Source: Methanosarcinaceae archaeon (lineage in GTDB: Archaea; Halobacteriota; Methanosarcinia; Methanosarcinales; Methanosarcinaceae). From it: a stretch of DNA of 64,000 nucleotides. The notes under the pieces are model-generated. The model saw only the letters and a list, made by a program, of their open reading frames with translations. It made no database searches and was not told the DNA's origin. Shown here piece by piece: positions 8,069 to 38,703 of the stretch (the first letter of the stretch is position 1; every line of letters begins with the position of its first letter). The stretch lies in the NCBI GenBank assembly GCA_030627005.1, contig DAOUSW010000005.1, positions 3,470 through 67,469 on the forward strand, read 5' to 3'. The position numbers and the translations under genes are program-made.

Positions 8069-8111
8069 GAGAGCTTGAAGTGCAGAACCTGTATGTGGGG
8101 CGTGAGTTTAT

Positions 8112-8300
8112 CTGAAAATCGAAAAAACCCAGGCGGAACTGGCTGGTTTTCTCGTATTTTTTATTCTTTATCTGGTTATTTTCAATCTGTTTTTCCGCTT
8201 TAGTGGGGGTGATTCACCTATCTTCGTGCCCGGGACTCTGCTTTTCTCTCTGCTTGGTTACTGGCTGGGCGGCTACCTGTACGATAGGTACCTGAAATGA
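8112..8300 (+). CDS. Small two-TM membrane protein (62 aa), probable CTG start; absent from the ORF track
   Basis: Reads KIEKTQAELAGFLVFFILYLVIFNLFFRFSGGDSPIFVPGTLLFSLLGYWLGGYLYDRYLK*; in-frame TGA at 8103; SD-like GGGGCGTGA before the CTG. Confidence 0.6.
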   Translation: MKIEKTQAELAGFLVFFILYLVIFNLFFRFSGGDSPIFVPGTLLFSLLGYWLGGYLYDRYLK

Positions 8301-8448
8301 CTTTTGATAAGAGTTCCCGGTACTTCGGAGAGCTTCCGGGGGCAGGCAGGTTTTGAAGGCAGGTCTTCTTAACTTTCTATATAGTTCTTCTTTTTAATTT
8401 GTATTTTCGCAAATCCTTTATTATAGATTACAACAATTTCCGTGGCAG

Positions 8449-9093
8449 ATGTTGAAAGCAATCATTTTTGATGTTGACGGCGTCCTTGTGGATTCCATGC
8501 AGTTCCACGCCGACGCCTGGATCGAATCCTTCTGTGATGTGGGAATTACAATTAAACGGGAGGACATTTACGAGATCGAGGGCTCAAACGGGTGGGGAAT
8601 TGTCAGGTCCATCTTTAAAAAGGCGGGGAGAATTCCCGAACCCCATCACCTGGACGAAATACCTCTGAAAAAGAGGACGATTCTTGATTTCGAGCGGATA
8701 AAACCCTTTGAAGGCATTGTTGACGTGCTGCAGGACCTGAAAAAGCACTTCACTCTTGCCCTGGTCTCAGGCTCCGACCGCAAGATAGTTGAAAAGATGA
8801 TAGAGCACTTTTTCCCCGGTATATTCGAGGTTACAGTTGCCGGGATTGATGTCGAGAACGGAAAACCTGCCCCTGACCCTTACCTGAAAGCAGTGGAGAT
8901 GCTGGGGCTTGAAAAGGAAGAATGCATCGTTATCGAAAATGCTCCTCTGGGCGTGGAGGCCGCAAAAGCCGCCGGACTTTACTGTGTGGCTGTTCCCAGT
9001 ACGCTGGGACCTGAAAAGCTGCAGCACTCTGACCTGGTGCTCGAGAATCACCCGGCTCTTTTGAGATACCTGAAAAATCTAACTCCTTCTTAA
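8449..9093 (+). CDS. HAD-family phosphatase (beta-phosphoglucomutase-like)
   Basis: FDVDGVLVDS, GKPAPDPY, IENAPLGVEAA. Confidence 0.92.
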   Translation: MLKAIIFDVDGVLVDSMQFHADAWIESFCDVGITIKREDIYEIEGSNGWGIVRSIFKKAGRIPEPHHLDEIPLKKRTILDFERIKPFEGIVDVLQDLKKHFTLALVSGSDRKIVEKMIEHFFPGIFEVTVAGIDVENGKPAPDPYLKAVEMLGLEKEECIVIENAPLGVEAAKAAGLYCVAVPSTLGPEKLQHSDLVLENHPALLRYLKNLTPS

Positions 9094-9152
9094 ATTATCT
9101 CTCCTTGCTTTGCTGGGGCCTGGAAGATAGCTTTTTCAGGACATTTTTTCCC

Positions 9153-10298
9153 TCATTTTTCAGGGCATTTTTCCCTCACTTCTCTTTCGAGAAGTCTCCT
9201 CACTGCTGCCGGGCCGTCCAGCGTTTCGGCAAGTTCCATTGCTCGCCGGGTCTTTCTGGCATATTGCTCGTCTTCCAGCAGTTCCCGGATGCAGGCAAGG
9301 ATTGCCTCGGGGCGGGTCAGGTAACTCAGACGCTTCCCGCAGCCCATTTCTTCAATCGTGCTGGCGTTATTTTCCTGTTCGTTGTGTTTTTCATCCGGGA
9401 AAGATAGGACCGGGAGCCCGAAAGCCAGGCTCTCCAGAAGGGTCCCGTGTCCTCCTGCAGTGATTACGAGGTCCGAACCTTTATAATAGGGAAAGGGATT
9501 TTCCGTGAAGCCTGTCAACTTGACGTTCTCCGGGATTTCCGGGAACCGGGAGGGATCGATCCCGGGGCCTGTTATGAAGGTATAGTTGATGCTTGGATCC
9601 AGTTTTGCGGCTTCGAACACGCTCCGGAATATTGCTGCCCGGTAACCGAAAGCCCCGATGGTGGAGAGGACGTTTGGGTGGGGGAGTTTTTTTGCCTCAA
9701 CTTCCCCGTATTTCCATCGGATCAGGGGGCCGCTGAAAAAGATCGTGTCATTAATGTCCCTTGAGAGCACAAAGTTTCGCCGGTTGACCGAGTAGGGGAG
9801 CGGGTAGTCCGGGACTATGATCCCGTCCACGCTTCTGAAGATGCGGGCATAAAAGCTTTTTACAAGCTTTCCGGCCAGCCCTACAAAGGGTCCTTTATTC
9901 CGGAAAAACTCTGCCATATTGAACTGGTGCCCGATAAAGTAGACGGGGATTTTCCTGTGTTTTGCTGCAAGGATGCCCAGGTAATACCCGTCGGAAAGTA
10001 CGACGTCCGGCTCGAGTTCTTTTAGCAATTTCAAAATTTTCCTTACATCCCCCGGGCTGGAATTTTTGAGGGTTTTTGCAATGGACTTTCTAATGTTCAG
10101 GGTGCCTGCCGTTCCCACAAGAGTCAGTTCCGGAGGGATTTCGCATGCCATGTATCCTGTTTTTTCGACCAGGTCCTTTGAGTAGCCGTATGCCCCGAAG
10201 TACACGTCATGCCCTGCGGACAGGAACTCTTTTCCCAGGGCAAGGCAGCGGCTTGTGTGTCCCAAACCTTCTCCGCACATTAACAGCAAAATTTTCAT
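9153..10298 (-). CDS. GT-B glycosyltransferase (family 28 / MurG-like C-terminal domain)
   Basis: GEGLGHTSR, ITAGGHGTLLESL, EQENNA. Confidence 0.88.
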   Translation of the reverse strand: MKILLLMCGEGLGHTSRCLALGKEFLSAGHDVYFGAYGYSKDLVEKTGYMACEIPPELTLVGTAGTLNIRKSIAKTLKNSSPGDVRKILKLLKELEPDVVLSDGYYLGILAAKHRKIPVYFIGHQFNMAEFFRNKGPFVGLAGKLVKSFYARIFRSVDGIIVPDYPLPYSVNRRNFVLSRDINDTIFFSGPLIRWKYGEVEAKKLPHPNVLSTIGAFGYRAAIFRSVFEAAKLDPSINYTFITGPGIDPSRFPEIPENVKLTGFTENPFPYYKGSDLVITAGGHGTLLESLAFGLPVLSFPDEKHNEQENNASTIEEMGCGKRLSYLTRPEAILACIRELLEDEQYARKTRRAMELAETLDGPAAVRRLLEREVREKCPEK

Positions 10299-22747: not shown

Positions 22748-24670
22748 TCACTCTTCAATAATCCGGTCCTTTTCCAGGGTATCAAGAATCTCAATAAGCC
22801 TCCTTTTGCGTCTATTTTCATCCCTGATTTCCTTGAGATATGTTTTCCATTCTCCTTTTTGTCTCCCGGCTTCCATAGTCTCTTTGATCTTCCGGAGATG
22901 TACTGCAGCTTCTCTGTAAGCATCCACTTTTGTTTTGAAAATTAGTTCTTCTGCAAGCTTTTTCCAGATTTCTATCGCAATGTCGGGGGATTTCTCATGA
23001 ACGGCATTTGTAATTTTATTCTCGTCGATGTAATATGCGTAGCTTTTTGCTGCCTCCCCTTCCTTTTTTAGTTCTTCGTACCACCTGATTACCTCATCCG
23101 GGGCTTTTTCTTCAATAGCTATTTTGATCAGCAGGTCAAGCACGGGAGGTTTAATGTCTTCGAATGAATCGGGTTCTAACAGCCCTGTTACCGGAAGAAC
23201 CCCGGGAAGGATTGAAGTTTCGGCTCTGTTTTTGGCCCGGACTGCGGGCATGTCTCCTTTTTCAAGGTATCTGTGAGCTATTTCCCTGACTTCCTGCCAG
23301 ACCCCCGCTTTTTCGGATGTTTCCCGCATTTTGAGATATGAAGATAATTCCGGACCTCTGAAGAACTCTTCTGCCTGAAGGGCTGCTGCAAAAAACAGGT
23401 CTCCCTCTTTTTCTTTGGTTTCAATCAGGAGATTGCGGAGACTGTGGGCCATTCCCGGCTTCTCTTCCCGGGTTTTTCCTATCCCCCTGTAGATCCATTC
23501 CACAGCCTTTTCTTTCCGGCCCGCTTCAAGCAGTACCCCCACCAGCCGGTCATAACTGCCTGTCGCTTCGGCCTCGCGTTCGCAGATCGGGATGGCTTCT
23601 TCAAAAAGGCCTGCGTTTTTCAGGGCCCGGACCAGCCGGTCTGCCACCCGCTTCCTGTCCCAGCTTGAATAGTCAGGGCAGTACCCTTCATCAATTTCAC
23701 GCAGGCGGGTTTTCAGAATTTCCGCAAAATTTTTCCAGTTCTCCCTTGAAAAATCCTCTCCCCAGAATGCATGTTCGCCAATAACGTCGTACTCATCTTT
23801 TAATTCAAATTCAAAGGCTTCGAACATCCTTTCGTGGGCCGGGCTAGGGGACCCGGATAGGGCTTCGAATACGATGCTCATGCAGTTAGAAAGTTCCATT
23901 GCGATTTCCCCTTCCTGGTCGTACTCCATAATGTCATCGTACCTGTTCATGATTCCTTTTCCGATATCTACCAGTTCATCATAATGTCCCGAATCAAGCA
24001 GGCTTTCCATCCGGTTTTGCACGTTTGAAAAATCGGGCATTGTACTTTCATAACTCCAGGGGTCGTACTCCTGCGCTTCTTCCCAGAGCAGGTCCAGTTC
24101 GGAAGAGATGCCCCTGACAATTCCTCCTATATCTTCTGTTTCAAGGTCCTGTCTGTCCCGGAGGTAGCTGCCAAGAGAGGGGCTTTTTTCCGAAAACTCC
24201 ACCAGGATGTCTATCAGTTCGGCTTTTTCAAGCCCGTCGAGCCACTCCCTCAGGGGCGGACGGGAGCTTTTCCGGGTTTTACGGCTTTCAAAAGCTTCGG
24301 GTCCCTCATGCATTCTCCTTACCCTCAGGAGGAGCAGGTCGTTCTCTGAAAGTAGAGGGACTTTTATTCCATGTTGCAGGAGGTTGAGATACTCCAGGAC
24401 AGTTGCAACCCCGTGTTTGCAATCCCCTCCAACAGGGCAGGTGCATACGGAACTCAGCTCCCCGGCTTCCAGGGAAACCTCTGTGAAATATTCCCTTCTT
24501 CCCCGCACCATTGCAAGCAGGCCTCCTTCCTGGGTGCGTTTTATTTCCTCAACCCTGCCTGAGCGCTGGTAATCCTCTCCCTTTGATGTGGCCCTTGAGC
24601 CGGCCCATTCCTCGATGTCGCTCCATTTGAGAGGCCGAAACGGGTCGGGGTTTTCACTTTCCGATGGCAT
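22748..24670 (-). CDS. SWIM zinc-finger protein with long helical C-terminus
   Basis: CTCPVGGDCKH SWIM motif. Confidence 0.8.
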   Translation of the reverse strand: MPSESENPDPFRPLKWSDIEEWAGSRATSKGEDYQRSGRVEEIKRTQEGGLLAMVRGRREYFTEVSLEAGELSSVCTCPVGGDCKHGVATVLEYLNLLQHGIKVPLLSENDLLLLRVRRMHEGPEAFESRKTRKSSRPPLREWLDGLEKAELIDILVEFSEKSPSLGSYLRDRQDLETEDIGGIVRGISSELDLLWEEAQEYDPWSYESTMPDFSNVQNRMESLLDSGHYDELVDIGKGIMNRYDDIMEYDQEGEIAMELSNCMSIVFEALSGSPSPAHERMFEAFEFELKDEYDVIGEHAFWGEDFSRENWKNFAEILKTRLREIDEGYCPDYSSWDRKRVADRLVRALKNAGLFEEAIPICEREAEATGSYDRLVGVLLEAGRKEKAVEWIYRGIGKTREEKPGMAHSLRNLLIETKEKEGDLFFAAALQAEEFFRGPELSSYLKMRETSEKAGVWQEVREIAHRYLEKGDMPAVRAKNRAETSILPGVLPVTGLLEPDSFEDIKPPVLDLLIKIAIEEKAPDEVIRWYEELKKEGEAAKSYAYYIDENKITNAVHEKSPDIAIEIWKKLAEELIFKTKVDAYREAAVHLRKIKETMEAGRQKGEWKTYLKEIRDENRRKRRLIEILDTLEKDRIIEE

Positions 24671-24925
24671 AGTAAGGTATTTCCATCTATATTATAAAAA
24701 AGAGCAGCTGGGAGGGATAACTGGCCAGGGTTCGGCTTTTTTCCGGTTAATTTTCAAAGTACCTGCCAAACACTTTCCTGTCTGAGGTTTCTCGAATACG
24801 GGAATTCGATACTGTTTTAATATATGTAGTTATATATACCCTTTATATTCTTTGATCTTGTTATCTGTCAGGTTTGTTCACATGGTGGCAACATTTAGTT
24901 GTCAAGATTTAAGGGAGTGGTAGGA

Positions 24926-27805
24926 ATGAATTTCATCTCTGTACTGGCCTCGAAGGCAAGAGAAGATATGCATTTGCGCATTACGCTAATTAATGGCGAA
25001 ACTATAGAAGGGGATGTCATTGACATTAACAACGAGGGCGTACTCGTCATAAACAATGATGTATTATCGGGCATTTCTTTCAAGATGGTCGGGGTATGGC
25101 AATTAGGCCTTAAAGAGACTAATAAGCCCGATGATCCCCTTACTCTAAAAGTAGCTCCCATTTACGCTGAGAATGAGGGGAATGATTCCTGTCTGCCTGA
25201 AGGTCTGCCTGAAGGTCTGCCTGAAGGTCTACACGAAGGTCTACACGAAGGTCTACATGAAGGTCTACATGAAGGTCTACATGAAGATCTGCCTGAAGAT
25301 CTGCATGGGTGTCTGCACGAAGATGACCTTGAAGTTTTCCTGGTCGGCTTTTCCCCGTATAATACCGTTCTTTCGGACATAGAACCAAATAAGCACATCC
25401 CCACACCACCTGATTTTCTCCATAAGGAGGAGAAGGATACTGATAGGAATACGTGGGATAGCATTCTCAGCCGTTATCAGAATGCTGAGGTAAATAACAA
25501 CCCGGAATACCTGGAATTTTTATCTGAAGAAATGATTTTTCTGGGGAGCAGATACCCGGGGTCAGGGGTCTTTTACTATAACGCTGCCTGTTTTAAGTTG
25601 AAGTGCTGCAACTATCCTGATGCGGGCCAATTGTTTGAGAGGGCGTTTAAGCTCGATAAAAAAAGTGAGTATCTTTATAACGCTGCCTTCGCCTACCTTC
25701 ATGAAGAAAACAAGCCGAAAGCCCTTGTCAGTCTTGGGATCTATTTCTGCATTGAGAACCCCCTCTCAGACATAAAAATGTGGTATAAATTCTGTGATAT
25801 TGTCAAAGAGACCGGGGACTACTATGTTTTCAAAAATGTCCTGCATGAGGTTTTAATCAAATTCTGCTCTCCCGATGAAGAATCAGCCGATTTGTTGAAG
25901 CTGCTGCTCCAGTCGGTTGTTTATGTATTTAAGGACGTAAATATTTTACAGGAGAAACTAATCCCCCTCCTTCGCTTAATTAAAAACAACAACCTGGACC
26001 CTGGCAGCGGGCAGGTTAAGCTTCATATGGGCCTTCTTGATGAATTAACGGACTTTCCCGGCTTATGTAAGCCCAATGATTCTTTTGATCGGATGGTCCT
26101 GTTTTTGAACTGCGACGATGGAGGCCGCGGTTCGGTTTTCGGGCCCGAGCTCGTTAATGCAGGGGACGGCGTGGGGAACGGCAATGCAAATCCCGTGAAC
26201 CTTGAACCTCCCCTTGAAATGTACGTTTCTCCCGCAGGTCTCCGGGTTTCGGGTTTTATGACTCCGGAGAGCCCCGGGTTTGCAAGTAAAGGAAGTTTTG
26301 AGTTTGCAAGTAGGGAAGGTTCGGAGGGTTCAAATGAGGAAAGCAAGGAGTTCCCAGGCAAGGACGAGGATGGAATTTCATTATCAGAGCATTACTCTAC
26401 AGGCCTGAAGAGCGGGCATATTTACCGGACGATTCCTCCGGGCAGGTATGGTTTCCTGAGAGATGGGGACGGAAGGGAATATCATTTCAAATACGAGGAT
26501 GTTTTGGGGAACGCGGGGTATATTGATAGTGCTACCGAGGACAACCAGTTTCCCGTTTTATTCAAATGCAGAGCCAGTACTCTGGAAGATGTGGCTACTC
26601 CCAATACGGCTTATATCGTCTTTTCCACGGAATTACTGGATAATATCATTGCTCTGGCCAGGCAATTTTCCCGGGAAAAGGATTACCCTCATGCAATCCT
26701 CGAATTAAAAACCGTACTCGATTATGATCCTGATAACTTCGAAGCCGGAAATTTGAAAGAGAGGTGGGAAAAGTTATACGAAGAAAAGTACATGACAAAT
26801 CTTGACAAAAACAAAATTAATTTTGAACCTAAAAATGAAGCTGAGTGGAGGCATAAAGCCGATCTGATGCTTAAGCTGGGTATGTGTGAAGAAGCTCTGG
26901 ATGCCTTTAATCGTGCAAAGTCCGGGATGTCGAGTTCTCTTTACGGGCAGGGCATCGCATACCTGAAAACGGGAGCATATGCTGAAGCCGTTGAATGTTT
27001 TAAAAAGGTCCTTGTAAAAACCCCCCTGTATTACCATGCCAGTTATGCCAGAGGGCTTGCGTACCAGCGCCAGGGGATGTATAAAAGTGCCCTGGAAGAT
27101 TTCAATGAGGTCGTAAGGCTCCGGCCTGACTATCAGGATGCCTGGAAACAAAAGGCGTTTGTACTGGACCAGCTGGAAAAGTTTGAGGAATCCATAGAGG
27201 CATACGATATGAGTCTGGCCCTGGTCCCCACGGACTGGAAGGCTCTTTCCAGAATGAGTTCGGTCCTTACCAAACAGAACCGGCTTTCTGAAGCAATGGA
27301 ATGCGTAGAAGAAGCTTTAAGGCATGTCCCTGACCACCCGGATTCCCTTTTTGCAAAGGGATATATCTTCCAGAAAGAAGGCAAACTCGATAAAGCCCTG
27401 GAATGGATCGAAAAGAGCCTTGAATATAATCCGGGGAATGTAAAAGCCCTTACCAAAAAAGCGTATATCCTTGCAAAATTAGGGGACCACGGGGCCGCAG
27501 TCGACGCAATTGAAAAAGCTATCCACCTGAACATGAATAACCCCAAGACCTGGTATTACAGGGGGGTCATTTTCCATTATTCGGGAGATCATGAAAAAGC
27601 AATTTCTTCATACCTTTGCTCTCTCGAGCTCAAGCCCGGGGTAAAAAGGGTAATCTCCTGTAAGGAAAGAGCTGAAAAAAGCCTGGCTCTTTCCCTGAAA
27701 TTGGTTCAGGAGGCAAATGAGGAAAAAGCCTTCCCTTTGAACTCAAGTCCCGAATTAGACGAACTTGTCTCACAATTCAATAAAATTCATTCTCACAGCA
27801 GCTAA
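24926..27805 (+). CDS. Large TPR protein with putative Sm-like N-terminus and cold-shock/OB-like segment
   Basis: Many C-terminal TPRs (AWKQKAFVL, TWYYRGVIF); GRYGFLRDGDGREYHF; internal 12 bp EGLP/EGLH repeat. Confidence 0.75.
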   Translation: MNFISVLASKAREDMHLRITLINGETIEGDVIDINNEGVLVINNDVLSGISFKMVGVWQLGLKETNKPDDPLTLKVAPIYAENEGNDSCLPEGLPEGLPEGLHEGLHEGLHEGLHEGLHEDLPEDLHGCLHEDDLEVFLVGFSPYNTVLSDIEPNKHIPTPPDFLHKEEKDTDRNTWDSILSRYQNAEVNNNPEYLEFLSEEMIFLGSRYPGSGVFYYNAACFKLKCCNYPDAGQLFERAFKLDKKSEYLYNAAFAYLHEENKPKALVSLGIYFCIENPLSDIKMWYKFCDIVKETGDYYVFKNVLHEVLIKFCSPDEESADLLKLLLQSVVYVFKDVNILQEKLIPLLRLIKNNNLDPGSGQVKLHMGLLDELTDFPGLCKPNDSFDRMVLFLNCDDGGRGSVFGPELVNAGDGVGNGNANPVNLEPPLEMYVSPAGLRVSGFMTPESPGFASKGSFEFASREGSEGSNEESKEFPGKDEDGISLSEHYSTGLKSGHIYRTIPPGRYGFLRDGDGREYHFKYEDVLGNAGYIDSATEDNQFPVLFKCRASTLEDVATPNTAYIVFSTELLDNIIALARQFSREKDYPHAILELKTVLDYDPDNFEAGNLKERWEKLYEEKYMTNLDKNKINFEPKNEAEWRHKADLMLKLGMCEEALDAFNRAKSGMSSSLYGQGIAYLKTGAYAEAVECFKKVLVKTPLYYHASYARGLAYQRQGMYKSALEDFNEVVRLRPDYQDAWKQKAFVLDQLEKFEESIEAYDMSLALVPTDWKALSRMSSVLTKQNRLSEAMECVEEALRHVPDHPDSLFAKGYIFQKEGKLDKALEWIEKSLEYNPGNVKALTKKAYILAKLGDHGAAVDAIEKAIHLNMNNPKTWYYRGVIFHYSGDHEKAISSYLCSLELKPGVKRVISCKERAEKSLALSLKLVQEANEEKAFPLNSSPELDELVSQFNKIHSHSS

Positions 27806-28082: not shown

Positions 28083-30851
28083 ATGAGCAATAAGCAGACT
28101 CATAACCAGAATCCGGAGCAGAAAGCCAGAGATGATATTGATAGAAAACTAACCGAGTCTGGCTGGATAGTGCAGGAAAAGACCGGGATAGATTGGAATG
28201 CTTCCAGGGGCATTGCGGTTAAGGAGTACCTGACCGATGTGGGGCCGGTTGATTATGTACTCTTTGTTGATAAAAAGCCCGTTGGAATCATTGAGGCGAA
28301 AAGGGACGAGGAAGGCCATCGGTTAACCGTTGTTGAGGAACAATCCTCTGAGTATGCTGCAAGCAAGCTAAAGTATCTGAACAATGACCCTCTTCCTTTT
28401 GTGTACGAGAGTACCGGGGAACTTACCCGATTCACAGACTTCCGTGACCCGAAACCCAGGTCAAGACCTGTTTTTTCATTTCTCCGGCCCGAGACTTTTG
28501 AGGAATGGCTCAAAAAAGATAAACCTTTGAGGGAAAGGTTTCTGGATATACCCGAATTGCGGACAGAAGGGCTGCGGGACTGCCAGATTACCGCTATCTC
28601 AAATCTTGAAAAATCCTTTAAGGACAACCGCCCGAGGGCGCTGGTCCAGATGGCAACAGGTTCCGGAAAGACCTATACTGCCATAACCTTCATCTACCGA
28701 TTACTAAAATTTGCGGATGCCAAAAAGGTCCTGTTCCTTGTCGATACCAAAAACCTGGGTGAACAGGCCGAGCAGGAATTCATGGCTTATGTGCCCAATG
28801 ACGACAACCGCAAATTTACCGAGCTGTACAATGTACAGCGCCTGCGTTCCAGTTATATCTCATCGGACAGCCAGGTCTGCATTTCCACAATTCAGCGGCT
28901 TTACTCTATTTTGAAGGGGGAGGAGCTGGACGAGAAAACCGAGGAAGAAAACCCCGCTGAGAAAGGATGGCAGCCAAAGGAACCGCTTCCTGTTGTGTAT
29001 AATGAGAAGGTCCCCCTTGAAGTGTTTGATTTTGTGGTCATAGACGAGTGCCACCGTTCCATATACAACCTCTGGCAGCAGGTGCTTGATTATTTCGATG
29101 CTTTTTTGATTGGCCTGACAGCTACCCCGGACAAACGCACATTCGCGTTTTTCAATGAGAACGTGGTGAGCGAGTACAGCCATGAAGAAGCTGTGGCAGA
29201 CGGCGTGAATGTGGGCTATGATGTGTACACCATCGAGACTGAAATCAGCAAAAACGGGGCAACGATAAATGCGCGGGAGTTTGTGGACAAACGGGTGAAA
29301 CTTACCCGTAAAAAACGCTGGGAACAGCTGGATGAAGCTGTCACCTATACTGCTAAGAAGCTGGACAAAGACGTGGTAAACCCCAGCCAGATCCGGCATG
29401 TGATACGGACATTCAAGGAAAAGTTGCCTGAGATCTTCCCCGGCAGAGAGGAAGTCCCAAAAACCCTGGTCTTTGCCAAGAGTGACAGCCATGCCGATGA
29501 TATCATCAATATACTGCGGGAAGAGTTCAACGAAGGCAATGCCTTTTGCAAGAAAGTGACCTACAAAGCGGAAGAAGATCCAAAATCGGTGCTGGCAGAT
29601 TTCCGCAACGCTTACAATCCCAGAGTAGCGGTTACGGTGGACATGATTGCCACGGGTACGGATGTTAAGCCCCTGGAATGCCTGCTCTTCATGAGGGACG
29701 TCAAGAGCCTCAATTATTTTGAGCAGATGAAAGGCCGGGGCACAAGGACCCTGGGCTATGATGACCTGAAAAAGGTGACAACATCGGCTGTTTCTGCCAA
29801 GACGCATTTTGTAATTGTGGATGCCGTGGGCGTTACAAAGACCTTAAAGACCGACAGCAGGCCTCTGGAACGCAAAAGAAACACGCCTCTGAAAGACCTG
29901 CTTGCAGCAGTAACCTTTGGCGCCCGCGACGAAGACCTTTATGTTTCCCTGGCTTCCCGCCTTGCAAGGCTGAACAGGCAGATAAGTGAAGATGAAAGGG
30001 CCACTTTTGCTGAGAAAGCTAACGGAAAAACTCTCAATCAGACCGTAAAGGACCTTCTCAATGCATATAACCCCGATATCATCGATCTCAAAGCTTCCGA
30101 AATTCAACTGCGCCAGCCGGAAATCCAGGACGCCGATGCTCAGAAAAAGGCACATGAAACCCTGATTGATGTTGCAAGGTCCACCTTTTCCGGCGAGCTG
30201 AACGAGTACATCGAAAACGTCCGCAGGGTCCATGAGCAGATAATCGATGCCGTGAACACCGACACCGTGCTCAGGGCCGAATGGGACAAAGACGCCGTGG
30301 CAAAGGCAGACGAGCTGATCATTGACTTTAAGGCATATATGGAAGCCAACAAAGACGAGATCTCAGCCTTGAGAATCTTCTATAACCAGCCCTACCAGCG
30401 CAGGGACGTCACCTTCACGATGCTAAAAGAAGTCCTGGAAAAGCTGAAACTCGAAAAGCCCCACTTCGCCCCCTTCAGGGTCTGGCAGGCTTACGAGCAG
30501 CTTGAAAAGGTAAACGGCAACTCCCCCAAAAACGAACTCATAGCCCTGGTCTCCCTGATCCGCAGGATAACCGAGATCGACCCTGTCCTCACAGCCTACG
30601 ACCGGACCGTAAACCGGAACTTCCAGGACTGGGTATTCAAAAAACAGGCAGGAACCCTGAAATTCAATGACGGCCAGATGAACTGGCTCCGCATGATAAA
30701 AGATTATGTGGCTACCAGCTTCCACCTGGAAATAGACGACCTTGACTACACTCCCTTCGATGCCCCTGGCGGGCGCGGCAGGATGTACCAGCTTTTCGGG
30801 GACGAGATGAATTTGCTTATAAGTGAATTGAATGAGGCCCTGGCGGCGTGA
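28083..30851 (+). CDS. hsdR: Type I restriction endonuclease subunit R (EcoEI/type IB-like)
   Basis: DYVLFVDKKPVGIIEAK nuclease motif, MATGSGKT, VIDECHRS, QMKGRGTR. Confidence 0.93.
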   Translation: MSNKQTHNQNPEQKARDDIDRKLTESGWIVQEKTGIDWNASRGIAVKEYLTDVGPVDYVLFVDKKPVGIIEAKRDEEGHRLTVVEEQSSEYAASKLKYLNNDPLPFVYESTGELTRFTDFRDPKPRSRPVFSFLRPETFEEWLKKDKPLRERFLDIPELRTEGLRDCQITAISNLEKSFKDNRPRALVQMATGSGKTYTAITFIYRLLKFADAKKVLFLVDTKNLGEQAEQEFMAYVPNDDNRKFTELYNVQRLRSSYISSDSQVCISTIQRLYSILKGEELDEKTEEENPAEKGWQPKEPLPVVYNEKVPLEVFDFVVIDECHRSIYNLWQQVLDYFDAFLIGLTATPDKRTFAFFNENVVSEYSHEEAVADGVNVGYDVYTIETEISKNGATINAREFVDKRVKLTRKKRWEQLDEAVTYTAKKLDKDVVNPSQIRHVIRTFKEKLPEIFPGREEVPKTLVFAKSDSHADDIINILREEFNEGNAFCKKVTYKAEEDPKSVLADFRNAYNPRVAVTVDMIATGTDVKPLECLLFMRDVKSLNYFEQMKGRGTRTLGYDDLKKVTTSAVSAKTHFVIVDAVGVTKTLKTDSRPLERKRNTPLKDLLAAVTFGARDEDLYVSLASRLARLNRQISEDERATFAEKANGKTLNQTVKDLLNAYNPDIIDLKASEIQLRQPEIQDADAQKKAHETLIDVARSTFSGELNEYIENVRRVHEQIIDAVNTDTVLRAEWDKDAVAKADELIIDFKAYMEANKDEISALRIFYNQPYQRRDVTFTMLKEVLEKLKLEKPHFAPFRVWQAYEQLEKVNGNSPKNELIALVSLIRRITEIDPVLTAYDRTVNRNFQDWVFKKQAGTLKFNDGQMNWLRMIKDYVATSFHLEIDDLDYTPFDAPGGRGRMYQLFGDEMNLLISELNEALAA

Positions 30852-31025: not shown

Positions 31026-31242
31026 TAGCATCCCGGGGTAATTCATAGACTTTCTTTTTCTCACCGTTTTCAGTACTGGTGGACACGACCTCAATTACGT
31101 CAGGAATGTATATTATCAATGAATTGTTATTATTAATGGGGCGGTTTATGATGGGCAGGCGAAGAGCATGGAACGCTTCTCTGTACTTTTGGAAGAGATA
31201 AATAAAGACAATAAGTGAATAATATATTGGGAGTTGAGGTGT

Positions 31243-31614
31243 ATGGGAATAGCTGAAGAAACGCAAGTTCCAAGGCACAGGACTTTTGTGGCGTCAACGG
31301 AAATAAAAGGATCTAAGATCCTTACTGTTAAAGATGAAGAACTCGGAACGATTAAAGAAGTCATGATTGACTCTGAATGGGGAAGAATCGCATACGTAGT
31401 ATTTGCTTGTGATTGTTTTCTTGGTATGAAGTGTAAATTCTTTGCCATTCCTTGGGGAGCTCTTGAAGCAAATCTAGGAGAGTATATCCTTAAAGTTGAT
31501 AAGGGAGCATTCAAAACGGCAGAAGGCCTGGATGAAAATGTGTGGACTTTAAATCGTAACGATTTGGTTAAAGTGTATGAACAGTATAATGTTCCTCCTT
31601 ACTGGGAAGTTTAA
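31243..31614 (+). CDS. PRC-barrel domain protein
   Basis: GAGGTG then ATG; IKGSKI...LGTIKEVMID...GRIAYVV...FFAIPW. Confidence 0.88.
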   Translation: MGIAEETQVPRHRTFVASTEIKGSKILTVKDEELGTIKEVMIDSEWGRIAYVVFACDCFLGMKCKFFAIPWGALEANLGEYILKVDKGAFKTAEGLDENVWTLNRNDLVKVYEQYNVPPYWEV

Positions 31615-31841
31615 AAGCTCATTTTCGGGTGATGATTTAGCCATATATGGGAACCATAGGACGTTGTTTAAGAATGTAATAATTAGTACAGCATTTGATG
31701 TACACACTGATCGACAGAGTATATGACTGATGATTTACAGGTAGACTTTGCAAAAATACTACTGGTATATATTACTCAGAATAATATAACCGCTAGTATT
31801 TTATACTTTAACTTACATATTATATATTGTTCACAAGGAAC

Positions 31842-32440
31842 TAAGCTGTAAAATGAAGCAAATTCAGGACAGAGTAAAACCTGATCCCGCAATAAACTTC
31901 ATTGACGCGTAAGCTGTAAAATGAGGCAAATTCAGGACAGAAAAATCTGATCCCGTATAATACTTCATTGGCGCGTAGCTATAAGGTGGAGCAAATTCAG
32001 GACGGCTTGAAAACCGATCCCGTAATCTACTTCATTTATGGCGTAAACTGCGAAATGAAGCAAATTCAGGGCAGTCTGATATCTGATCCCGTAATCTACT
32101 TCATTTATGGTGTAAACTGCGAAATGAAGCAAATTCAGGACAGGGTAAAAGCTGATCCCGTAATCTACTTCATTGACGTGTAAGCTTAAAATGGAGCAAA
32201 TTCAGGACAGAATAATCTGATCCCTCAATAAACTTCATTGGCGCGTAGCTATAAGGTGGAGCAAATTCAGGACGGCTTGAAAACCGATCCCGTAATATAC
32301 TTCATTTATGGCGTAAACTGCGAAATGAAGCAAATTCAGGACAGTCTAAAATCTGATCCCGTAATATACTTCATTGACATGTAAGCTTAAAATGGAGCAA
32401 ATTCAGGACAGAAAAATCTGATCCCTCAATAAACTTCATT
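31842..32440 (+). repeat. Array of 9 structured units, period 65-69 bp
   Basis: Consensus RTGRAGCAAATTCAGGAC-N8/10-CYGATCCCG-N6-ACTTCATT-N15-18; unit starts 31853, 31921, 31986, 32055, 32124, 32191, 32256, 32325, 32392. Confidence 0.95.
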
Positions 32441-33045
32441 GATGCAGACCAAACCTTGTGAACCCCTTATTCACTCTTTTAATCAAAGTTAAAGCGTCTA
32501 GATGTTGTTTCCTCTTCTTTTACTGTTTTTCTCAGCTTTTTGTTTTAGATATTTAACAAGCAACGTAATTATACTGTTTTGAGCCAAAATGAGCAGAATT
32601 CCTGTCTACAGACACTTCCACGTAGTATGAAAAATGTTTTCACTTTAGAAGGTGAAAATTAGTGAAATACCGGGATTGTCTGAATACATATTTACGTTCA
32701 CAATCCCAATCATCCCCGGTTAATTTTCAATGGTACACTATTTTCGAGATGCTTTTTTTGTTTGCGGCTCTAATACAGACCTATATGCTTTTATACAGTT
32801 TTAATTTCTTGTTAAATTACTGAAAGGCACGAGTAGACAATTATTTAATCAACTGACATCTTAAAAGTACTTCAAAATTGATAATGTTCGAATACAGATT
32901 TATATGAGGCTCTGGCGGCTTGAATACAAATGTATAATATTCAATTTAAATTTGACCGATTTGCGGTTTAAGTGAACTATATTCATATATATCTAAACAG
33001 TATAAATTTATACAGTGTTTTCATGAATGGGGTTGATAAGGAATT

Positions 33046-34533
33046 ATGAAACTTCTATATGATACAAATATTTTAATTCACATTCAAGATCCAAAAGAGC
33101 TTTCTCCCAATCTTCAAGCATTGTTAACAATAATCCGAGAACATGGTCATCAGGAGTTTATCCATCCTGCTTCTTTGAAGGATATCGAAAATGATAATGA
33201 TACTGAAAGAAGGAGAATAACTTTATCAAAGCTTCGTGGTTATCCTCTGCTTCCTTCACCGCCTACTCCAGATGATGAGTTTACATCTTTAGTAGGTATT
33301 CCCGTAAATTCACATGATGAAAATGACAACGAAATTCTTTTTTCACTTAAAAAAAATCTTGTAGATTTCCTCATAACAGAAGATAAAGGAATCGGAAAAA
33401 AAGCCAATTTACTGAATCTTGATGATAGAGTGCTTTCAATTGATTCAGCTCTCAATTATTTTACGGCCTTATATCAACGTTTTTTCCCTAATCATAGTTT
33501 ATTGAGGAAATGCTATGCTCATGAAATTGATATTAATCAACCGTTTTTTGACTCACTTAAATCAGATTATGGAGATGCGGATTTTAAAAAATGGTATGAT
33601 AAATGTATCAAAGAAAGTCGTGAATGTTACACTTATGAAGAGAATGACAAAGTTAAAGCTTTTCTCATGCTAAAAGAAGAAAATGAAGTTATTGAAACAC
33701 ATTATCCCATTCCTGCCACAAAAAGAGTTAAAATTGCAACACTAAAGGCCGATTTATCAGGTTCTAAAATGGGCGAACTCTTCCTCAAAATAGCTTTTCA
33801 GTATTGCATAAATAATCAGATTTTTGAAATTTACTTAACTCATTTTGAAACTGAAGATGACACCTTATCTTATCTCATTGAGAACTTTGGTTTTGAAAGA
33901 GTAGGAGAGCTGGCAAAGAATGATGAACCGGTATATCTAAAGAAACTTATCCCGGAAACTACTGAATTACGGCCATTAGAAATTGCTAGAAAATCCTATC
34001 CTTGCTTTAAAGATAGTGAAAGTGTTAACAAATTTGTGATCCCAATTCTTCCCGAATTTCACGATATTCTATTTCCTGAATACAAAAGAAGGCAAATGAA
34101 ATTGACAGATTATTTTGAAATCAATATTCCTGGCAATGCAATAAAAAAGGCATATCTTTCATCACGATTTTCTTCCAGATTGGGACTCGGAGACATAATT
34201 CTTTTTTATCGTTCACATGATCAAAAAGCGATAACTTCTCTCGGAATAATTGATCAGGAACCAATACGAACCAGTAATTTAGATGAACTTAAAAGAATAG
34301 TAGGTAAAAGAAGTGTATATTCTGAAGAAGAACTTAAAAAATGGGCAGAAAAATCAGTTTTTGTTATCCGTTTCAAGCATCACTTATACTTACCAAATCC
34401 TCTGAATCTGAGTTATCTCATAGAAAATGATATTTTGAAAAGTGCCCCACAATCGATAACTGAAATAAACCATGAACAATATCTATCTCTAAAAACTGGT
34501 GGCAAACTCGATGAACGTTTTACTGTCAATTAA
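33046..34533 (+). CDS. PIN + GNAT + EVE/PUA-like fusion protein
   Basis: LYDTNILI...HDENDNEIL...LITED (PIN); KIATLK...GELFLK...FGF (GNAT); GNAIKKAYL...GDIILFYRS...APQSITEI (EVE/PUA-like). Confidence 0.8.
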   Translation: MKLLYDTNILIHIQDPKELSPNLQALLTIIREHGHQEFIHPASLKDIENDNDTERRRITLSKLRGYPLLPSPPTPDDEFTSLVGIPVNSHDENDNEILFSLKKNLVDFLITEDKGIGKKANLLNLDDRVLSIDSALNYFTALYQRFFPNHSLLRKCYAHEIDINQPFFDSLKSDYGDADFKKWYDKCIKESRECYTYEENDKVKAFLMLKEENEVIETHYPIPATKRVKIATLKADLSGSKMGELFLKIAFQYCINNQIFEIYLTHFETEDDTLSYLIENFGFERVGELAKNDEPVYLKKLIPETTELRPLEIARKSYPCFKDSESVNKFVIPILPEFHDILFPEYKRRQMKLTDYFEINIPGNAIKKAYLSSRFSSRLGLGDIILFYRSHDQKAITSLGIIDQEPIRTSNLDELKRIVGKRSVYSEEELKKWAEKSVFVIRFKHHLYLPNPLNLSYLIENDILKSAPQSITEINHEQYLSLKTGGKLDERFTVN

Positions 34534-36526
34534 ACCAAAGTATGTTGATGAAATTCTAGCTGGTAAAAAGATATTTGAGTTTAGAAAATCCATTTTCAAA
34601 AAAAAGGATATAGGCAAAGTATTCATTTATTCGAGTTCTCCTGTCAAAAAAATAGTTGCATCATTCGAGATTGCCAGAATCATTGCCGATTCTCCTCAAA
34701 AACTCTGGAATAAATGCCAGAAATATGGAGGAATCCCTGAAAATGACTTTTTTGAGTATTTCAAAAATTCAGATATTGGTTATGCAATAGAAATAACCAA
34801 TCTTAATGAGTTTTCTGAGCCAATTAATCCCTACAAATTAAAACAGGACTTTAGACCACCACAATCTTACTGTTATTTACCTTTGGATTATTTTGAAAAT
34901 ATAAACATCAACAGTATTCCAAGAATAAAAAAACAGGATATGGTGCTGTTGGAATCAGGTAATGAATATTTCTCCAATTCAGATACCAATAAAAACTCCA
35001 GCAAAAAACATACACAAACTAAACTTTCCAATGAAGATGAATTTCAAAAGATGCCAGGACTGTCAGAAGGGTTGCTGAAAAATAACATGATTATGGAAGA
35101 GAGAGCTGGATGGATAGAAACTGAATTGGGTCAAGTAGCTGAAATTATAATGGGACAATCGCCACCATCTTCAACTTACAATGAATATGGTATTGGACTC
35201 CCTTTTTTTCAAGGAAAAGCAGAGTTTACTGAACTACACCCCCTTGTTTCAAAATGGTGTTCAGAGCCAAAGAAGATTGCTGAATCAAACGATATTCTAA
35301 TTTCGGTTAGAGCCCCAGTTGGAGCAACAAATATTGCTAACCAAAAGTGTTGCATTGGTAGAGGATTAGCAGCCATTCGTTACCCCGATTGCAACAAGTA
35401 TGTGTTCTACTTTTTGAGATTAATTGAAAAAGAATTGGATAAAAAAGGTACTGGCACGACCTTTAAAGCGATTTCAGGTTCAGTTTTAAAGAGTGAAGGA
35501 ATCCCTTTAGCTCCTCTTCCCGAACAACGCGCCATAGTCTCCAAAATCGAGCAGCTCTTCAGCGAACTGGACAACGGCATTGCCAACCTCAAACTGGCAC
35601 AGGAACAGCTCAAGGTGTATCGGCAGGCGGTGCTGAAGAAGGCGTTTGAAGGGGAGCTTACGAAAAAATGGCGGGAGCAGCAGACTGATCTGCCGGATGC
35701 GGGGGATTTGCTGGAACAGATTAGGAAGGAAAGAGAAGAAGCTGTAAAAGCCTCCGGCAAAAAACTGCAAAAAACTAAGCCTTTTACTGAAGTGGAATTG
35801 ACAGAGTTACCGAGACTACCCGAAGGATGGGGATGGGAAAGATTGGAGGGAGTCGGATATTGGACAGGAGGTGGAACTCCTTCAAAACAAAACCATTCTT
35901 ATTGGAATAATGGTGATGTTCTTTGGGTTTCTCCAAAAGATATGAAAACTACGTTGATTTTAGATACCGGAGATAAAATAACCAAAGATTCAATTGAGAA
36001 TTCTTCCGCAAAATGGATAGCTAAAGATTCAATACTTTTTGTTGTTAGAAGTGGAATCATTAGAAGAATTTTGCCGATCGCATTAGCAGGGAAAAACCTC
36101 ACAACAAACCAAGATTTACAATCATTGACTTTATTTTGGGGAGATAAAGATTATGTATTCTGGTATTGCCAGGCTAATGAGCAAGTCATTAGGGAAAAAT
36201 GCGCTAAAGATGGTACAACTGTAGACAACATTGAAGTTCCACGTTTGAAATCATACCCGATAGCAATTTGTTCCCTCCCTGAACAACAAGCCATCGTTCA
36301 GGAAATCGAAACCCGCCTTTCAGTCTGCGACAAGATAGAGCAGGATATAAAAGAGAATCTGGAAAAAGCCGAAGCACTTCGGCAGAGTATTTTGAAAAAA
36401 GCGTTTGAGGGGAAGTTGCTTAATGAAAGGGAGCTGGCAGAGGTTCGAGGGGCAGAGGATTGGGAGCCGGCTGAGGTTTTGCTGGAGAGGGTGAAGGCTG
36501 AGAGAGCAGGGAATGGGAAGACGTGA
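34511..36526 (+). CDS. hsdS: ASCH domain fused to type I RM specificity subunit S
   Basis: MNVLLSIKP..GKKIFEFRK...PPQSYCY (ASCH), ~60 aa linker, then two TRDs with conserved PLPEQRAIV...LKKAFEG and PEQQAIV...LKKAFEG; single open frame. Confidence 0.88.
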   Translation: MNVLLSIKPKYVDEILAGKKIFEFRKSIFKKKDIGKVFIYSSSPVKKIVASFEIARIIADSPQKLWNKCQKYGGIPENDFFEYFKNSDIGYAIEITNLNEFSEPINPYKLKQDFRPPQSYCYLPLDYFENININSIPRIKKQDMVLLESGNEYFSNSDTNKNSSKKHTQTKLSNEDEFQKMPGLSEGLLKNNMIMEERAGWIETELGQVAEIIMGQSPPSSTYNEYGIGLPFFQGKAEFTELHPLVSKWCSEPKKIAESNDILISVRAPVGATNIANQKCCIGRGLAAIRYPDCNKYVFYFLRLIEKELDKKGTGTTFKAISGSVLKSEGIPLAPLPEQRAIVSKIEQLFSELDNGIANLKLAQEQLKVYRQAVLKKAFEGELTKKWREQQTDLPDAGDLLEQIRKEREEAVKASGKKLQKTKPFTEVELTELPRLPEGWGWERLEGVGYWTGGGTPSKQNHSYWNNGDVLWVSPKDMKTTLILDTGDKITKDSIENSSAKWIAKDSILFVVRSGIIRRILPIALAGKNLTTNQDLQSLTLFWGDKDYVFWYCQANEQVIREKCAKDGTTVDNIEVPRLKSYPIAICSLPEQQAIVQEIETRLSVCDKIEQDIKENLEKAEALRQSILKKAFEGKLLNERELAEVRGAEDWEPAEVLLERVKAERAGNGKT

Positions 36527-36802: not shown

Positions 36803-36926
36803 AATTTGATTTGTTTATATGATCACTCCTATTGCTGATGAGAAAACTGAGGGTGCAATTGAGGGCGTAAAAACATAAACCACAGGATCAAAGGATATCA
36901 TCGGCTGGTTAAATGATACTGTTAAT

Positions 36927-37088
36927 TACCCCCCAAGCTACCCCCCAAGCTACCCCCCAAGCTACCCCCCCAAGCTACCCCGCAGGCTACCGCGCAAGTT
37001 ACCCCGCAAGTTACCCCGCAGCCACCCAGCAGGCTACCGCGCAAGCTACCGCGCAAGCTACCGCGCAAGCTACCGCGCAAGTTACCGA
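36927..37088 (+). repeat. 12 bp tandem repeat (CCCCAAGCTACC / GCGCAAGCTACC), PQAT/PQVT-coding
   Basis: Direct reading; about 13 degenerate units. Confidence 0.85.
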
Positions 37089-37170: not shown

Positions 37171-38703
37171 ATGTCTGAAAATACCTCATCCATCGTTTCC
37201 AAAGTCTGGAGCTTCTGCAACGTCCTGAGGGACGGGGGCGTGAGCTACGGTGATTATCTGGAACAGTTGACCTATCTCATTTTCCTGAAAATGGCTCAGG
37301 AGTACAGGAAGGAGCCATATAACAGGGATATTGGTATCCCGGAGGAATATACCTGGGACAGGCTGAAACAGCAGCGTGGAGCGGAGCTCGATACTCATTA
37401 CAAGGGGCTCTTGGAAGAGCTGGGGAAAAAGCCGGGAATGCTGGGGCAGATCTTCCTCAAGGCCCAGAACAAGATAAGCGACCCTGCAATGCTGTACAAG
37501 GTCATTGATATGGTCGATAAGGAAAGCTGGGTCATGATGGGTGTGGATACCAAGGGAGAAATCTACGAAGGGCTCCTGCAGAAGAACGCAGAAGATACAA
37601 AAAGCGGAGCCGGACAGTACTTCACCCCGAGGCCTCTTATCAAGGTCATGGTCCGGTGCCTGCAGCCCGAACCCCTGAAGACCATAGGTGACCCCTGCTG
37701 CGGTACAGGCGGGTTCTTTTTAGCAGCTTATGACTTCCTTACCTCACAGCACAGGCTGGACCGGGAACAGAGCCGCTTTTTGAAAAACAAAACCTTTGGA
37801 GGGAATGAGATCGTCGCAGGGACCAGACGGCTTGCCCTTATGAACATGTTCCTGCACAACATCGGGGAAATCGACGGGGAGCCCATGATCTCCAATTCCG
37901 ACGCTCTTATAGCCGATCCCGGCTACCGTTACGATTACATCCTCACCAACCCGCCCTTCGGAAAGAATAGCAGCATGACCTTCACCAACGAAGAAGGCGA
38001 GCAGGAAAAAGAAGAGCTCACCTACAACCGTCAGGACTTCTGGACAACCACGAGCAACAAGCAGCTCAACTTTGTGCAGCATATCCACACCATCCTAAAA
38101 ACCGGCGGGCAGGCAGCAGTAGTACTGCCGGACAATGTGTTGTTTGAAGGCGGAGCAGGGGAGACCGTGCGCAAAAAGCTTCTTGAGACCACCGACCTGC
38201 ACACAATCCTGCGCCTGCCGACAGGCATCTTCTATGCGAATGGGGTAAAGGCAAACGTGCTTTTCTTTGAGGCAAAACCCGCAGCCAAAGAGCCCTGGAC
38301 AAAAGAAGTGTGGATCTACGACTACCGCACAAATGTGCACCACACCCTCAAAAAGAATCCGATGAAGTATTCGGACCTGGAAGACTTTGTCAAATGCTAT
38401 AACCCCGAAAACCGTTTCAGCCGTACTGAGACCTGGAGCGAAGAAGCTCCCGAAGGCAGGTTCCGGAAATTCGGCTATGAGGAAATTGTAGCAAGGGATA
38501 AAACGAACCTGGATATCTTCTGGCTCAAGGACAAAAGCCTTGCTGACCTGGACAACCTTCCGGACCCAGATATTCTTGCAAACGAGATCATCGAGAATAT
38601 GGAGGCTTCGCTGGCAAGTTTCAAGGAGATTATGCTCACAATTAATGGAAACGGGGGAGACAACGGAAGCGGGGGAGACAATGGAAACGGGTACGGGAAT
38701 TGA
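37171..38703 (+). CDS. hsdM: Type I RM N6-adenine methyltransferase subunit M
   Basis: GAGQYFTPR, DPCCGTGGF, LTNPPFG, VVLPDNVLF. Confidence 0.95.
   Translation: MSENTSSIVSKVWSFCNVLRDGGVSYGDYLEQLTYLIFLKMAQEYRKEPYNRDIGIPEEYTWDRLKQQRGAELDTHYKGLLEELGKKPGMLGQIFLKAQNKISDPAMLYKVIDMVDKESWVMMGVDTKGEIYEGLLQKNAEDTKSGAGQYFTPRPLIKVMVRCLQPEPLKTIGDPCCGTGGFFLAAYDFLTSQHRLDREQSRFLKNKTFGGNEIVAGTRRLALMNMFLHNIGEIDGEPMISNSDALIADPGYRYDYILTNPPFGKNSSMTFTNEEGEQEKEELTYNRQDFWTTTSNKQLNFVQHIHTILKTGGQAAVVLPDNVLFEGGAGETVRKKLLETTDLHTILRLPTGIFYANGVKANVLFFEAKPAAKEPWTKEVWIYDYRTNVHHTLKKNPMKYSDLEDFVKCYNPENRFSRTETWSEEAPEGRFRKFGYEEIVARDKTNLDIFWLKDKSLADLDNLPDPDILANEIIENMEASLASFKEIMLTINGNGGDNGSGGDNGNGYGN

Follow-up and report, generated by a model that had tools for sequence, protein, structure and literature searches.

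A tandem-hairpin RNA gene in a restriction-modification island of a Methanosarcinaceae archaeon, possibly a multivalent scaffold

The window examined here is a 64,000-nucleotide stretch of DNA from a Methanosarcinaceae archaeon (contig DAOUSW010000005.1 of assembly GCA_030627005.1, positions 3,470 to 67,469 of the forward strand; window coordinates count from its first letter). Within a type I restriction-modification (RM) locus it carries an array of nine tandem units. We find that positions 31798–32546 constitute a complete, independent plus-strand gene for a stable structured RNA of about 640 nt, an identification that we make with high confidence. To the joint statement that this is an RNA gene and that its product serves as a multivalent scaffold or sponge we assign a probability of about 0.45.

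Tandem Repeats Finder reports a single tandem array at 31842–32440 with a period of 69, 8.9 copies and a score of 603, as well as higher-order periods at 201 and 270. Nine copies of the invariant core GCAAATTCAGG are present, on the plus strand only and nowhere else in the window, and a profile search at E ≤ 10 found no extra unit copies in the 64 kb. The nine-unit array that the first-pass annotation had described from the sequence is therefore real. On the plus strand, unit 1 spans 31842–31909, unit 2 31910–31974, unit 3 31975–32043, unit 4 32044–32112, unit 5 32113–32179, unit 6 32180–32244, unit 7 32245–32313, unit 8 32314–32380 and unit 9 32381–32447, so that all modules together occupy 31842–32447. 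Each unit is 65–69 bp long and contains three conserved blocks, as originally described. The variable segments between them measure 3–8 nt and recur from unit to unit; the last unit of an array typically closes with ..CTTCATTGnTGCAG. The higher-order pattern of units noted in the same annotation also holds, since other species show the unit subtypes in the same order. Its judgement that the array is not a CRISPR agrees with these short, recurrent segments shared between species and with the fact that no Cas domains were found among the neighbours in the window. Rfam 15 at gathering thresholds returned only two tRNAs for the whole window, and at E ≤ 10 the region 31600–33100 gave chance-level matches and no family for the array. 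We also considered a viral origin of the array and rejected it, as no match was found among viral contigs.

To describe the module encoded by each unit we counted pairs over 232 unique units, drawn from the 249 units that a profile search recovers from all loci of the family (1–12 units per locus), and ran a second test on 104 diverse units aligned with MAFFT without regard to structure. Explicit pair counts were used instead of RNAalifold, which at default settings gave no consensus structure for the 232 units. The outer part of the plus-strand hairpin consists of a 7-bp stem, an internal loop (C·A, A-U/A·A, A·A/C), three base pairs AUU/AAU, a bulged U and a C-G pair. The apical part continues with an A·C mismatch, GGA/UCC, a bulged A, CAG/CUG (columns 29–31 and 40–42) and an 8-nt loop of the form nnU-R-A-A-A-n. 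The outer stem AATGAAG/CTTCATT had been proposed from the window alone and is well supported, with 98.8% of cells paired in the 104 diverse units. The whole structure in this alignment pairs in 95.6% of cells versus 28–45% in slid controls, and none of 500 shuffles reaches its covariation score or its number of double changes. For the apical pair 30–41, 149 units have A-U and 62 have G-C, and intermediates are few. Pair 26–46 is seen as G-C, G·U and A-U and almost never as A·C. The inner stem TCAG/CTGA of the earlier description is out of register. Column 25 is A in every unit and column 41 covaries with column 30; the inner helix is formed instead by CAG/CUG and GGA/UCC with a bulged A. The hairpin arm GCAAAUUCAGGAC shows almost no variation. 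The A·C mismatch is replaced by C·A in the unit of M. barkeri and of an M. thermophila-type genome, as if the non-canonical pair itself were retained.

The counts also identify the strand. Among the cells of the outer stem in the 232 units, 1355 are Watson–Crick pairs on the plus strand, 231 are G·U, 7 are A·C and 21 are other combinations. For single units the minus strand is the one that folds to lower free energy (z of −3 to −5 versus −2 to −3), and a minus-strand RNA was considered and rejected. The energy edge stems from C18·A55 and A25·C47 and carries no information, because these positions never vary. The 231 G·U cells would be mismatches on the minus strand. This asymmetry between G·U and A·C, together with the covarying pair 30–41, shows selection on the plus-strand hairpin.

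Readings of the unit as a K-turn, a C/D or H/ACA element or a tRNA-like structure were discarded, as no supporting motifs are present. In particular, the consensus is without the tandem G·A pairs of box C/D guides, contains only a 3×3 internal loop, has no ANA box after the stem and matches no Rfam family. As a separate observation, the loop consensus U-R-A-A-A (unit columns 34–38) presents UAA or UGA, and hardly ever UAG, with AA after it in nearly every unit. UAG can encode pyrrolysine in Methanosarcinaceae. The UAA/UGA-type loop is a conserved exposed motif, though its form may be a coincidence.

The array is framed by conserved sequence on both sides. In every genomic context the 80 nt before the first unit are conserved and read ..ccgccaGTATTTTATAc, 9 nt, ACATATTATATATTGTTCACAAGGAACTAAGCTGTAA. 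The promoter block ccgccaGTATTTTATAc contains the TATA box ATTTTATA (31798–31805, plus strand), which sits at a fixed distance upstream of the arrays in all contexts. The transcription start is placed at about 31827, 22 nt downstream of the TATA box, by homology with spRNA14, an annotated RNA of Methanosarcina mazei whose sequence TTGGTTCA.. aligns to TTGTTCAC.. in the window. The M. mazei TATA box lies at −29 to −22 from the annotated 5′ end of spRNA14, and the box of the M. barkeri and M. thermophila-type loci lies about 26 nt upstream of the leader G. Between TATA box and start there is a second AT-rich, TATA-like element, ATATTATATATT (31817–31828, plus strand), which is conserved at all loci. 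The first-pass annotation had pointed to such an element at about 31820. It does exist, but by homology with the mapped 5′ end of spRNA14 the functional TATA box is the one upstream. An adapter-joined contig end at 31848 makes a second start or a processing site at this position possible.

Two terminal helices join the ends of the transcript. The first, T1, pairs the leader strand GTTCACAAGG (31829–31838) with the trailer strand CCTTGTGAAC (32454–32463) in both the minimum free energy (MFE) and the centroid structure; RNA contigs reach 32455–32466. The second, T2, pairs CTGTA at the start of unit 1 (31846–31850) with TGCAG just past the last unit (32443–32447) in the fold of the whole transcript, and it is predicted in nearly all loci. 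All four strands are read on the plus strand. For the complete 643-nt transcript, MFE and centroid structures are both closed by T1 and T2, with z = −4.3. T1 shows compensatory changes: CACTAGG/CCTAGTG (locus L024), CATGAGG/CCTTATG (L040), GGTCAC/GTGATC (L016 and L033), GGTTCATAAGGGA/TCCCTGTGAACC in the type found beside ABC transporters, and CATAAGGG/CCCTTATG in the M. thermophila-type locus. The T1 duplex is consistently more stable on the plus than on the minus strand (for example, −21.8 versus −11.4 and −23.3 versus −14.1 kcal/mol). We considered a bulge–helix–bulge splicing site and hence a circular RNA and rejected this idea, because the T1/T2 junction is a symmetric 7×6 internal loop rather than two 3-nt bulges 4 bp apart. 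No contig joining the 3′ to the 5′ end was seen among the RNA contigs, which also counts against a circular RNA.

About 100 nt after the last unit are conserved as well, starting with GnTGCAGaCCAAACCTTGTGAACC.. and continuing into T-rich tracts. Oligo-T is the archaeal termination signal. Five such tracts form a terminator zone on the plus strand of the window (32477–80, 32518–21, 32526–30, 32537–41 and 32543–46; 32477–32546 overall). Tracts of at least four T occur at 5.6 per 150 nt downstream of the arrays versus 1.4 in random windows of the same loci, a four-fold difference, and the first one typically begins 13 nt past the trailer helix. In M. barkeri Wiesmoor the terminator region (locus L052, 7610–7800) consists of tandem 15-nt units, each with a T-tract (AACTGGTTTTAATTC), and an analogous CTGATTTTCAT repeat lies downstream of the single-unit gene in the M. 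thermophila-type locus (L054). Terminator T-tracts seem to have been multiplied through tandem duplication.

One member of the family had already been catalogued. Searching the supplements of a Ribo-seq study of M. mazei (PMC11456600) for the hypothetical peptide of a unit (ATG AAG CAA..) led us to spRNA14 of strain Go1, a 241-nt RNA on the minus strand of NC_003901.1:1237971–1238211, which the study credits to differential RNA sequencing (dRNA-seq) work from 2009. This RNA is a three-unit member of the family, and its units match the unit profile with E-values of 1.2e-24, 6.1e-22 and 2.7e-21. It begins with the leader TTGGTTCATAAGGG, 22 nt after ATTTTATA; its trailer CCCTTTGAACC closes a helix with the leader, and the RNA ends ..CCCTTTGAACCACCAAAC, 7 nt past the trailer strand. 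TATA spacing and orientation are those of the window array, so that homology, architecture and discrete expression all place the window array in the same family. The two differ in unit number (three versus nine) and in chromosomal context, as spRNA14 resides beside an ABC transporter like its counterparts in nine other genomes. The annotation of spRNA14 is independent confirmation of the strand, of the promoter assignment and of a transcript with several units. According to the same study, spRNA14 reaches 1,200–9,300 RPKM (reads per kilobase per million) at the RNA level and shows a log2 fold change of 2.27 (about 4.8-fold) in a table described as −N versus +N. No other annotated M. mazei small RNA (sRNA) in the tables of this study contains the module. 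In the searchable literature, spRNA14 is not mentioned in any main text, the core sequence of the array appears in no relevant paper, and we found neither a functional study nor any account of a tandem-hairpin family, a closing helix, spread over several loci, single-unit forms or environmental abundance. The one catalogued member thus figures as no more than an anonymous transcript that is presumed to encode a small protein; the family reading given here expands and re-interprets that entry.

Public soil and sediment metatranscriptomes contain sequence words from the array. Their contigs cover only 31842 to about 32455–32466 of the window, with zero coverage of both flanks. Word depth amounts to 1,000–5,000 in one data set (X1), up to about 1,500 in another (X3) and 80,000–138,000 in a soil sample (X2), distributed over hundreds of variant contigs. 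Linkers between units are bridged by contigs of 124–135 nt and 304 nt, and depth peaks at the linkers. Adapter-joined contig ends, which mark defined ends of molecules, occur at 31848, 32458 and 32466; none were found at internal linkers among the linkers shown in contigs. A second body of data comes from four single-organism cDNA libraries of an organism, here called A, whose flanking sequence is identical to that of an M. mazei-type contig (L050). Here the array reaches word depths of 9,000–68,000 and yields a 321-nt multi-unit unitig with a mean depth of 9,393, compared to a depth of 22 for the contig of a neighbouring gene and 100–860 for a tRNA of the window. One contig of this organism ends in a run of A after 31945 on the plus strand; we read this as the mark of a sense-stranded library with poly(A) tailing, which fits a plus-strand RNA. 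The RNA therefore exceeds neighbouring transcripts by hundreds to thousands of fold, and it accumulates largely as multi-unit molecules. The idea of a processed non-coding RNA array, put forward in the first-pass annotation, survives in part: the array is transcribed from its own promoter as a structured plus-strand RNA, with contigs that bridge the linkers.

An exact-pattern scan covering one genome per species found 48 loci, nearly all of them in Methanosarcina, other Methanosarcinaceae or Methanomethylovorans, with up to three per genome. Clustering of the flanking open reading frames (ORFs) revealed at least two recurrent contexts. About 13 loci lie in type I RM islands, always in the order hsdR (with or without a PRC-barrel gene), array, variable cargo and hsdS-hsdM. 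The cargo differs per genome and includes an SLFN/AlbA_2 protein, an McrB-like AAA_5 ATPase, a UPF0175/PIN-like pair and a DUF4352 lipoprotein. Another nine are flanked by an ABC-2 transporter on one side and a PAS sensor kinase on the other, and the remaining arrays have diverse surroundings. Unit number varies between orthologous loci (3 versus 6, 5 versus 12) and between paralogous ones, and unit subtypes keep their identity and order across species. Two typical arrays with Methanosarcina-like RM genes (L007 and L027) reside on contigs binned into a 'Candidatus Cloacimonadota' metagenome-assembled genome (MAG; STD2_63). A binning error is almost certain here, because a Methanosarcina MAG (STD2_179, locus L037) stems from the same sample series.

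We used the ABC permease orthologues of model strains to locate the orthologous site and scanned it with the profile. The M. mazei-type contig contains at least two units there. M. barkeri Wiesmoor (CP009526) and the M. thermophila-type genome each have a single diverged unit there, with TATA box, leader and trailer as in the arrays. By these single-unit forms, the basic form of the family is a rod-like RNA of about 100 nt, the central hairpin of which is amplified 1–12 times in the arrays.

How might such an RNA work? As the likeliest and simplest model we propose a multivalent platform in which each hairpin would bind one copy of a putative protein or ribonucleoprotein (RNP) partner. The RNA might then titrate, store or scaffold this partner, at a dose set by module number and transcription. 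The almost invariant 5′ arm, the fixed C·A and A·C pairs, the two bulges and the conserved loop suggest a specific recognition surface. The dose reading follows from the number of hairpins, which varies freely between orthologous and paralogous loci, and the persistent identity and order of subtypes across species argue against a homogenising satellite. We offer this mechanism tentatively and would not put it at even odds. CsrB, RsmY and RsmZ, bacterial protein-sponge RNAs with variable numbers of repeated hairpin modules, are the functional analogy we favour, as they too are abundant RNAs with repeated hairpins as potential binding sites; the likeness is one of logic, not ancestry. The bacterial protein CsrA is not known from archaea. 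Unlike in CsrB and RsmZ, whose multiple loop GGA motifs are bound by CsrA or RsmA, the GGA of the array is paired in GGA/UCC and not exposed in loops, and the Csr/Rsm families in Rfam gave no match to the array even at E ≤ 10.

Several observations weigh against this interpretation. The mechanism is read from the anatomy of the RNA, and no protein gene is consistently adjacent across 49 array loci, which share no conserved downstream gene or toxin. Covariation within the module is thin, with one strongly covarying pair and most of the support coming from one-sided G·U changes. The almost invariant arm would be equally compatible with base-pairing to another nucleic acid. The expression data are assembler contigs with a mean depth per contig, devoid of strand or per-base depth, from which short dead-end branches have been dropped. 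The leader (31829–31841) never appears in metatranscriptome contigs, and the mature ends are uncertain. Because the assembler drops such branches, we do not read the missing leader as evidence for trimming; it was probably clipped in assembly. Trimming of the leader from the mature RNA is not favoured on this ground and because both a unitig from pure culture and the spRNA14 annotation include the leader: the former runs through it and the latter begins at it. Finally, most units can be read as short ORFs. A start codon (ATG, GTG or TTG) occurs in one frame in 226 of the 232 unique units, a 19-codon ORF is open in 175 of them, and the Ribo-seq curation of M. mazei lists the ORF in the first unit of 'spRNA14' as translated.

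These last observations support the existing 'spRNA' reading, by which the transcript would be a polycistronic mRNA for up to nine related peptides of about 19 amino acids, or an RNA with a dual function. The peptides would follow the pattern M-(K/E)-Q-I-Q-D-x-(L/V)-K-x-D-P-x-I-(Y/N)-F-I-x-x, examples being MEQIQDSLKTDPEIYFIDAQDVR and MKQIQDGLKTDLAIYFIDA. The former is sORF_117 in the supplement of PMC11456600, marked 'yes' in manual curation, and a crude ratio of non-synonymous to synonymous changes is lower in the peptide frame (0.64) than in the other two (1.04 and 1.29). The translation efficiency of spRNA14 (0.30 and 0.62), however, lies below the mean for sRNAs (1.13) and far below that for coding sequences (4.49), with tRNAs at 0.19, and in the tables of this study sORF_117 has neither proteomic detection nor a BlastP match. 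The AUG is buried in the outer stem and no Shine–Dalgarno sequence precedes it. A quarter of the units (25%) are truncated as ORFs, and loop indels mostly measure 1, 2 or 4 nt. The commonest stop-creating change, C18 to T in about 10% of units, is the very change that turns C·A into U-A. Eight conserved codons show 19 synonymous versus 96 non-synonymous variants, and radical replacements (K/E at roughly 50:50, V/E/A, P/L, Y/N) sit where they are accounted for by G·U pairs, the bulged U or the internal loop. Covariation of pair 30–41 and the terminal helices have no coding rationale. These patterns suggest that constraint acts mainly on the RNA rather than on the peptide, and we consider the peptide reading improbable.

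Alternatively, the transcript could be a precursor that is cut at the linkers into trans-acting guides, antisense regulators or antitoxins of about 65 nt, including an antitoxin or decoy for the neighbouring candidate defence system PDC-M11. Type III antitoxins, crRNAs and the RNAs of tandem interspaced guide RNA (TIGR) arrays are indeed made from tandem, near-identical structured units, the adapter-joined end at 31848 falls in linker-type sequence, and the near-invariant arm resembles a seed or guide. ToxI-type antitoxin repeats are about 34–36 nt long, are cut to monomers by the toxin and have the toxin gene immediately downstream. The array shares with them tandem short structured repeats with their own promoter and terminator, but its units measure 65–69 nt, the multi-unit RNA predominates and no gene is conserved downstream; an endoribonuclease toxin gene immediately downstream is not a feature of the 49 loci. 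CRISPR and TIGR arrays (the latter from PMC12045711) likewise are transcribed and alternate conserved blocks with short variable segments. The 3–8-nt segments of the present array, in contrast, are recurrent and keep the same order across species instead of being hypervariable and spacer-like, and no Nop-domain (tas) gene was found in the flanking ORFs of the window or the recurrent neighbour clusters, a scan of neighbours rather than of whole genomes. Also against cutting are linkers at peak depth that are bridged by contigs of 124–321 nt with no adapter-joined ends at those shown, the annotation of spRNA14 as one 241-nt RNA and the existence of single-unit versions. No nuclease or toxin gene stands consistently beside the arrays. 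The analogy to repeated RNA antitoxins that had been suggested for this array thus does not hold, and we regard a cut precursor as unlikely, more so than a peptide mRNA. The array might finally act at the level of DNA, as a minisatellite, an array of protein-binding sites or an insulator or terminator in the RM island, with the RNA as a by-product. About 13 loci do sit between hsdR/PRC genes and cargo-hsdS-hsdM genes, and the units are imperfect palindromes whose minus strand folds to even lower free energy. Strand-specific tolerance of G·U (231 versus 7) cannot come from selection on DNA, and this together with the extreme abundance of the RNA contradicts the protein-binding sites that had been listed as an alternative. 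An ordinary minisatellite is at odds with a conserved promoter and terminators, transcription with zero flanks and individualised subtypes that keep their order, and the family also occurs outside RM contexts and as single units. This explanation is largely refuted here and very improbable.

Returning to the multivalent scaffold, the abundance of the RNA, its conservation down to single non-canonical pairs and the presence of several loci per genome make it very likely that it does something central. Among methanogens Methanosarcina is a main model, and it is a major source of methane in soils, sediments and digesters. A large share of the reads that are otherwise unassigned in methanogenic metatranscriptomes is explained by the signature of this family. 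A bolder formulation, which we put forward as a possibility short of an even chance, would be that of an archaeal RNA class not recognised before, namely a closed rod, the single hairpin module of which is amplified in tandem up to 12 times, acting as a dose-tunable, nitrogen-responsive multivalent RNP scaffold or sponge or as an RNA-only assembly. It would rank among the most abundant Methanosarcina transcripts, both in culture and in soils and sediments where methanogenesis takes place, and the 'small-protein mRNA' label of the M. mazei member would be a misreading; we hold this part just as tentatively. Modular protein-sponge RNAs are, to our knowledge, not established in archaea, and the sponge reading, if true, would open this topic. 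The gene model is testable in its promoter, closing helix, modules and terminators, and spRNA14 offers a genetically tractable entry with nitrogen-dependent expression.

The surroundings of the window array look like a defence island between 22.7 and 38.7 kb. A SWIM zinc finger protein of 640 amino acids (22748–24670, minus strand) matches the PADLOC candidate PDC-S62 with E = 1e-26 and gives weak DpdE-like matches. It is followed on the plus strand by a TPR protein (24899–27805), HsdR (28083–30851) and a PRC-barrel protein of 126 amino acids (31234–31614), which lies about 230 nt upstream of the array in the same direction. After the array, an AT-rich spacer of about 600 bp leads to a gene for a 495-amino-acid protein with PIN, GNAT and EVE domains (33046–34533), an ASCH-HsdS fusion (34499–36526) and HsdM (37171–38703), all on the plus strand. 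The 495-amino-acid protein matches PDC-M11A over its full length in PADLOC (E = 3.9e-147), and residues 3–134 of the fusion match PDC-M11B (E = 1.8e-49). By these matches, the PIN-GNAT-EVE/ASCH pair is the catalogued candidate defence system PDC-M11, inserted into a type I RM operon. PDC-M11B (ASCH) is fused in-frame to a full HsdS specificity subunit directly after PDC-M11A. This arrangement suggests that the effector pair is physically coupled to the RM specificity machinery.

A functional link between the array and the downstream PIN-GNAT-EVE/ASCH-HsdS module had been proposed. Clustering of flanking ORFs found a homologue of PDC-M11A next to none of the 48 other array loci, which lie in unrelated contexts, and this removes the basis for the link. 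That the array lies in a type I RM island beside PDC-M11 reflects one insertion context among several and no functional coupling; adjacency inside defence islands is in itself no proof of such a link. The PRC-barrel protein was also considered as a dedicated partner. PRC-barrel domains have been proposed to play a role in RNA metabolism, and the arrangement of PRC-barrel gene and array recurs in at least seven other RM-type loci. Only about half of the RM-type loci have this gene beside the array, and other contexts lack it; we rejected it as a dedicated partner for this patchy adjacency and keep it as a lead only.

The window is rich in other short tandem repeats. A 12-nt repeat, TACCCCGCAAGC, is present in about 13 copies between hsdS and hsdM (36926–37086). 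In related RM islands (locus L009, for example) the same motif encodes the PQATPQAT... repeats of the SLFN/AlbA_2 protein. Many further perfect or near-perfect repeats have units of 12–29 nt and up to about 20 copies, among them those at 3696–3745, 4036–4114, 6377–6428, 7973–8068, 25198–25307 and 55112–55347. Some lie inside ORFs, as does the repeat at 25198–25307 in the gene of the TPR protein.

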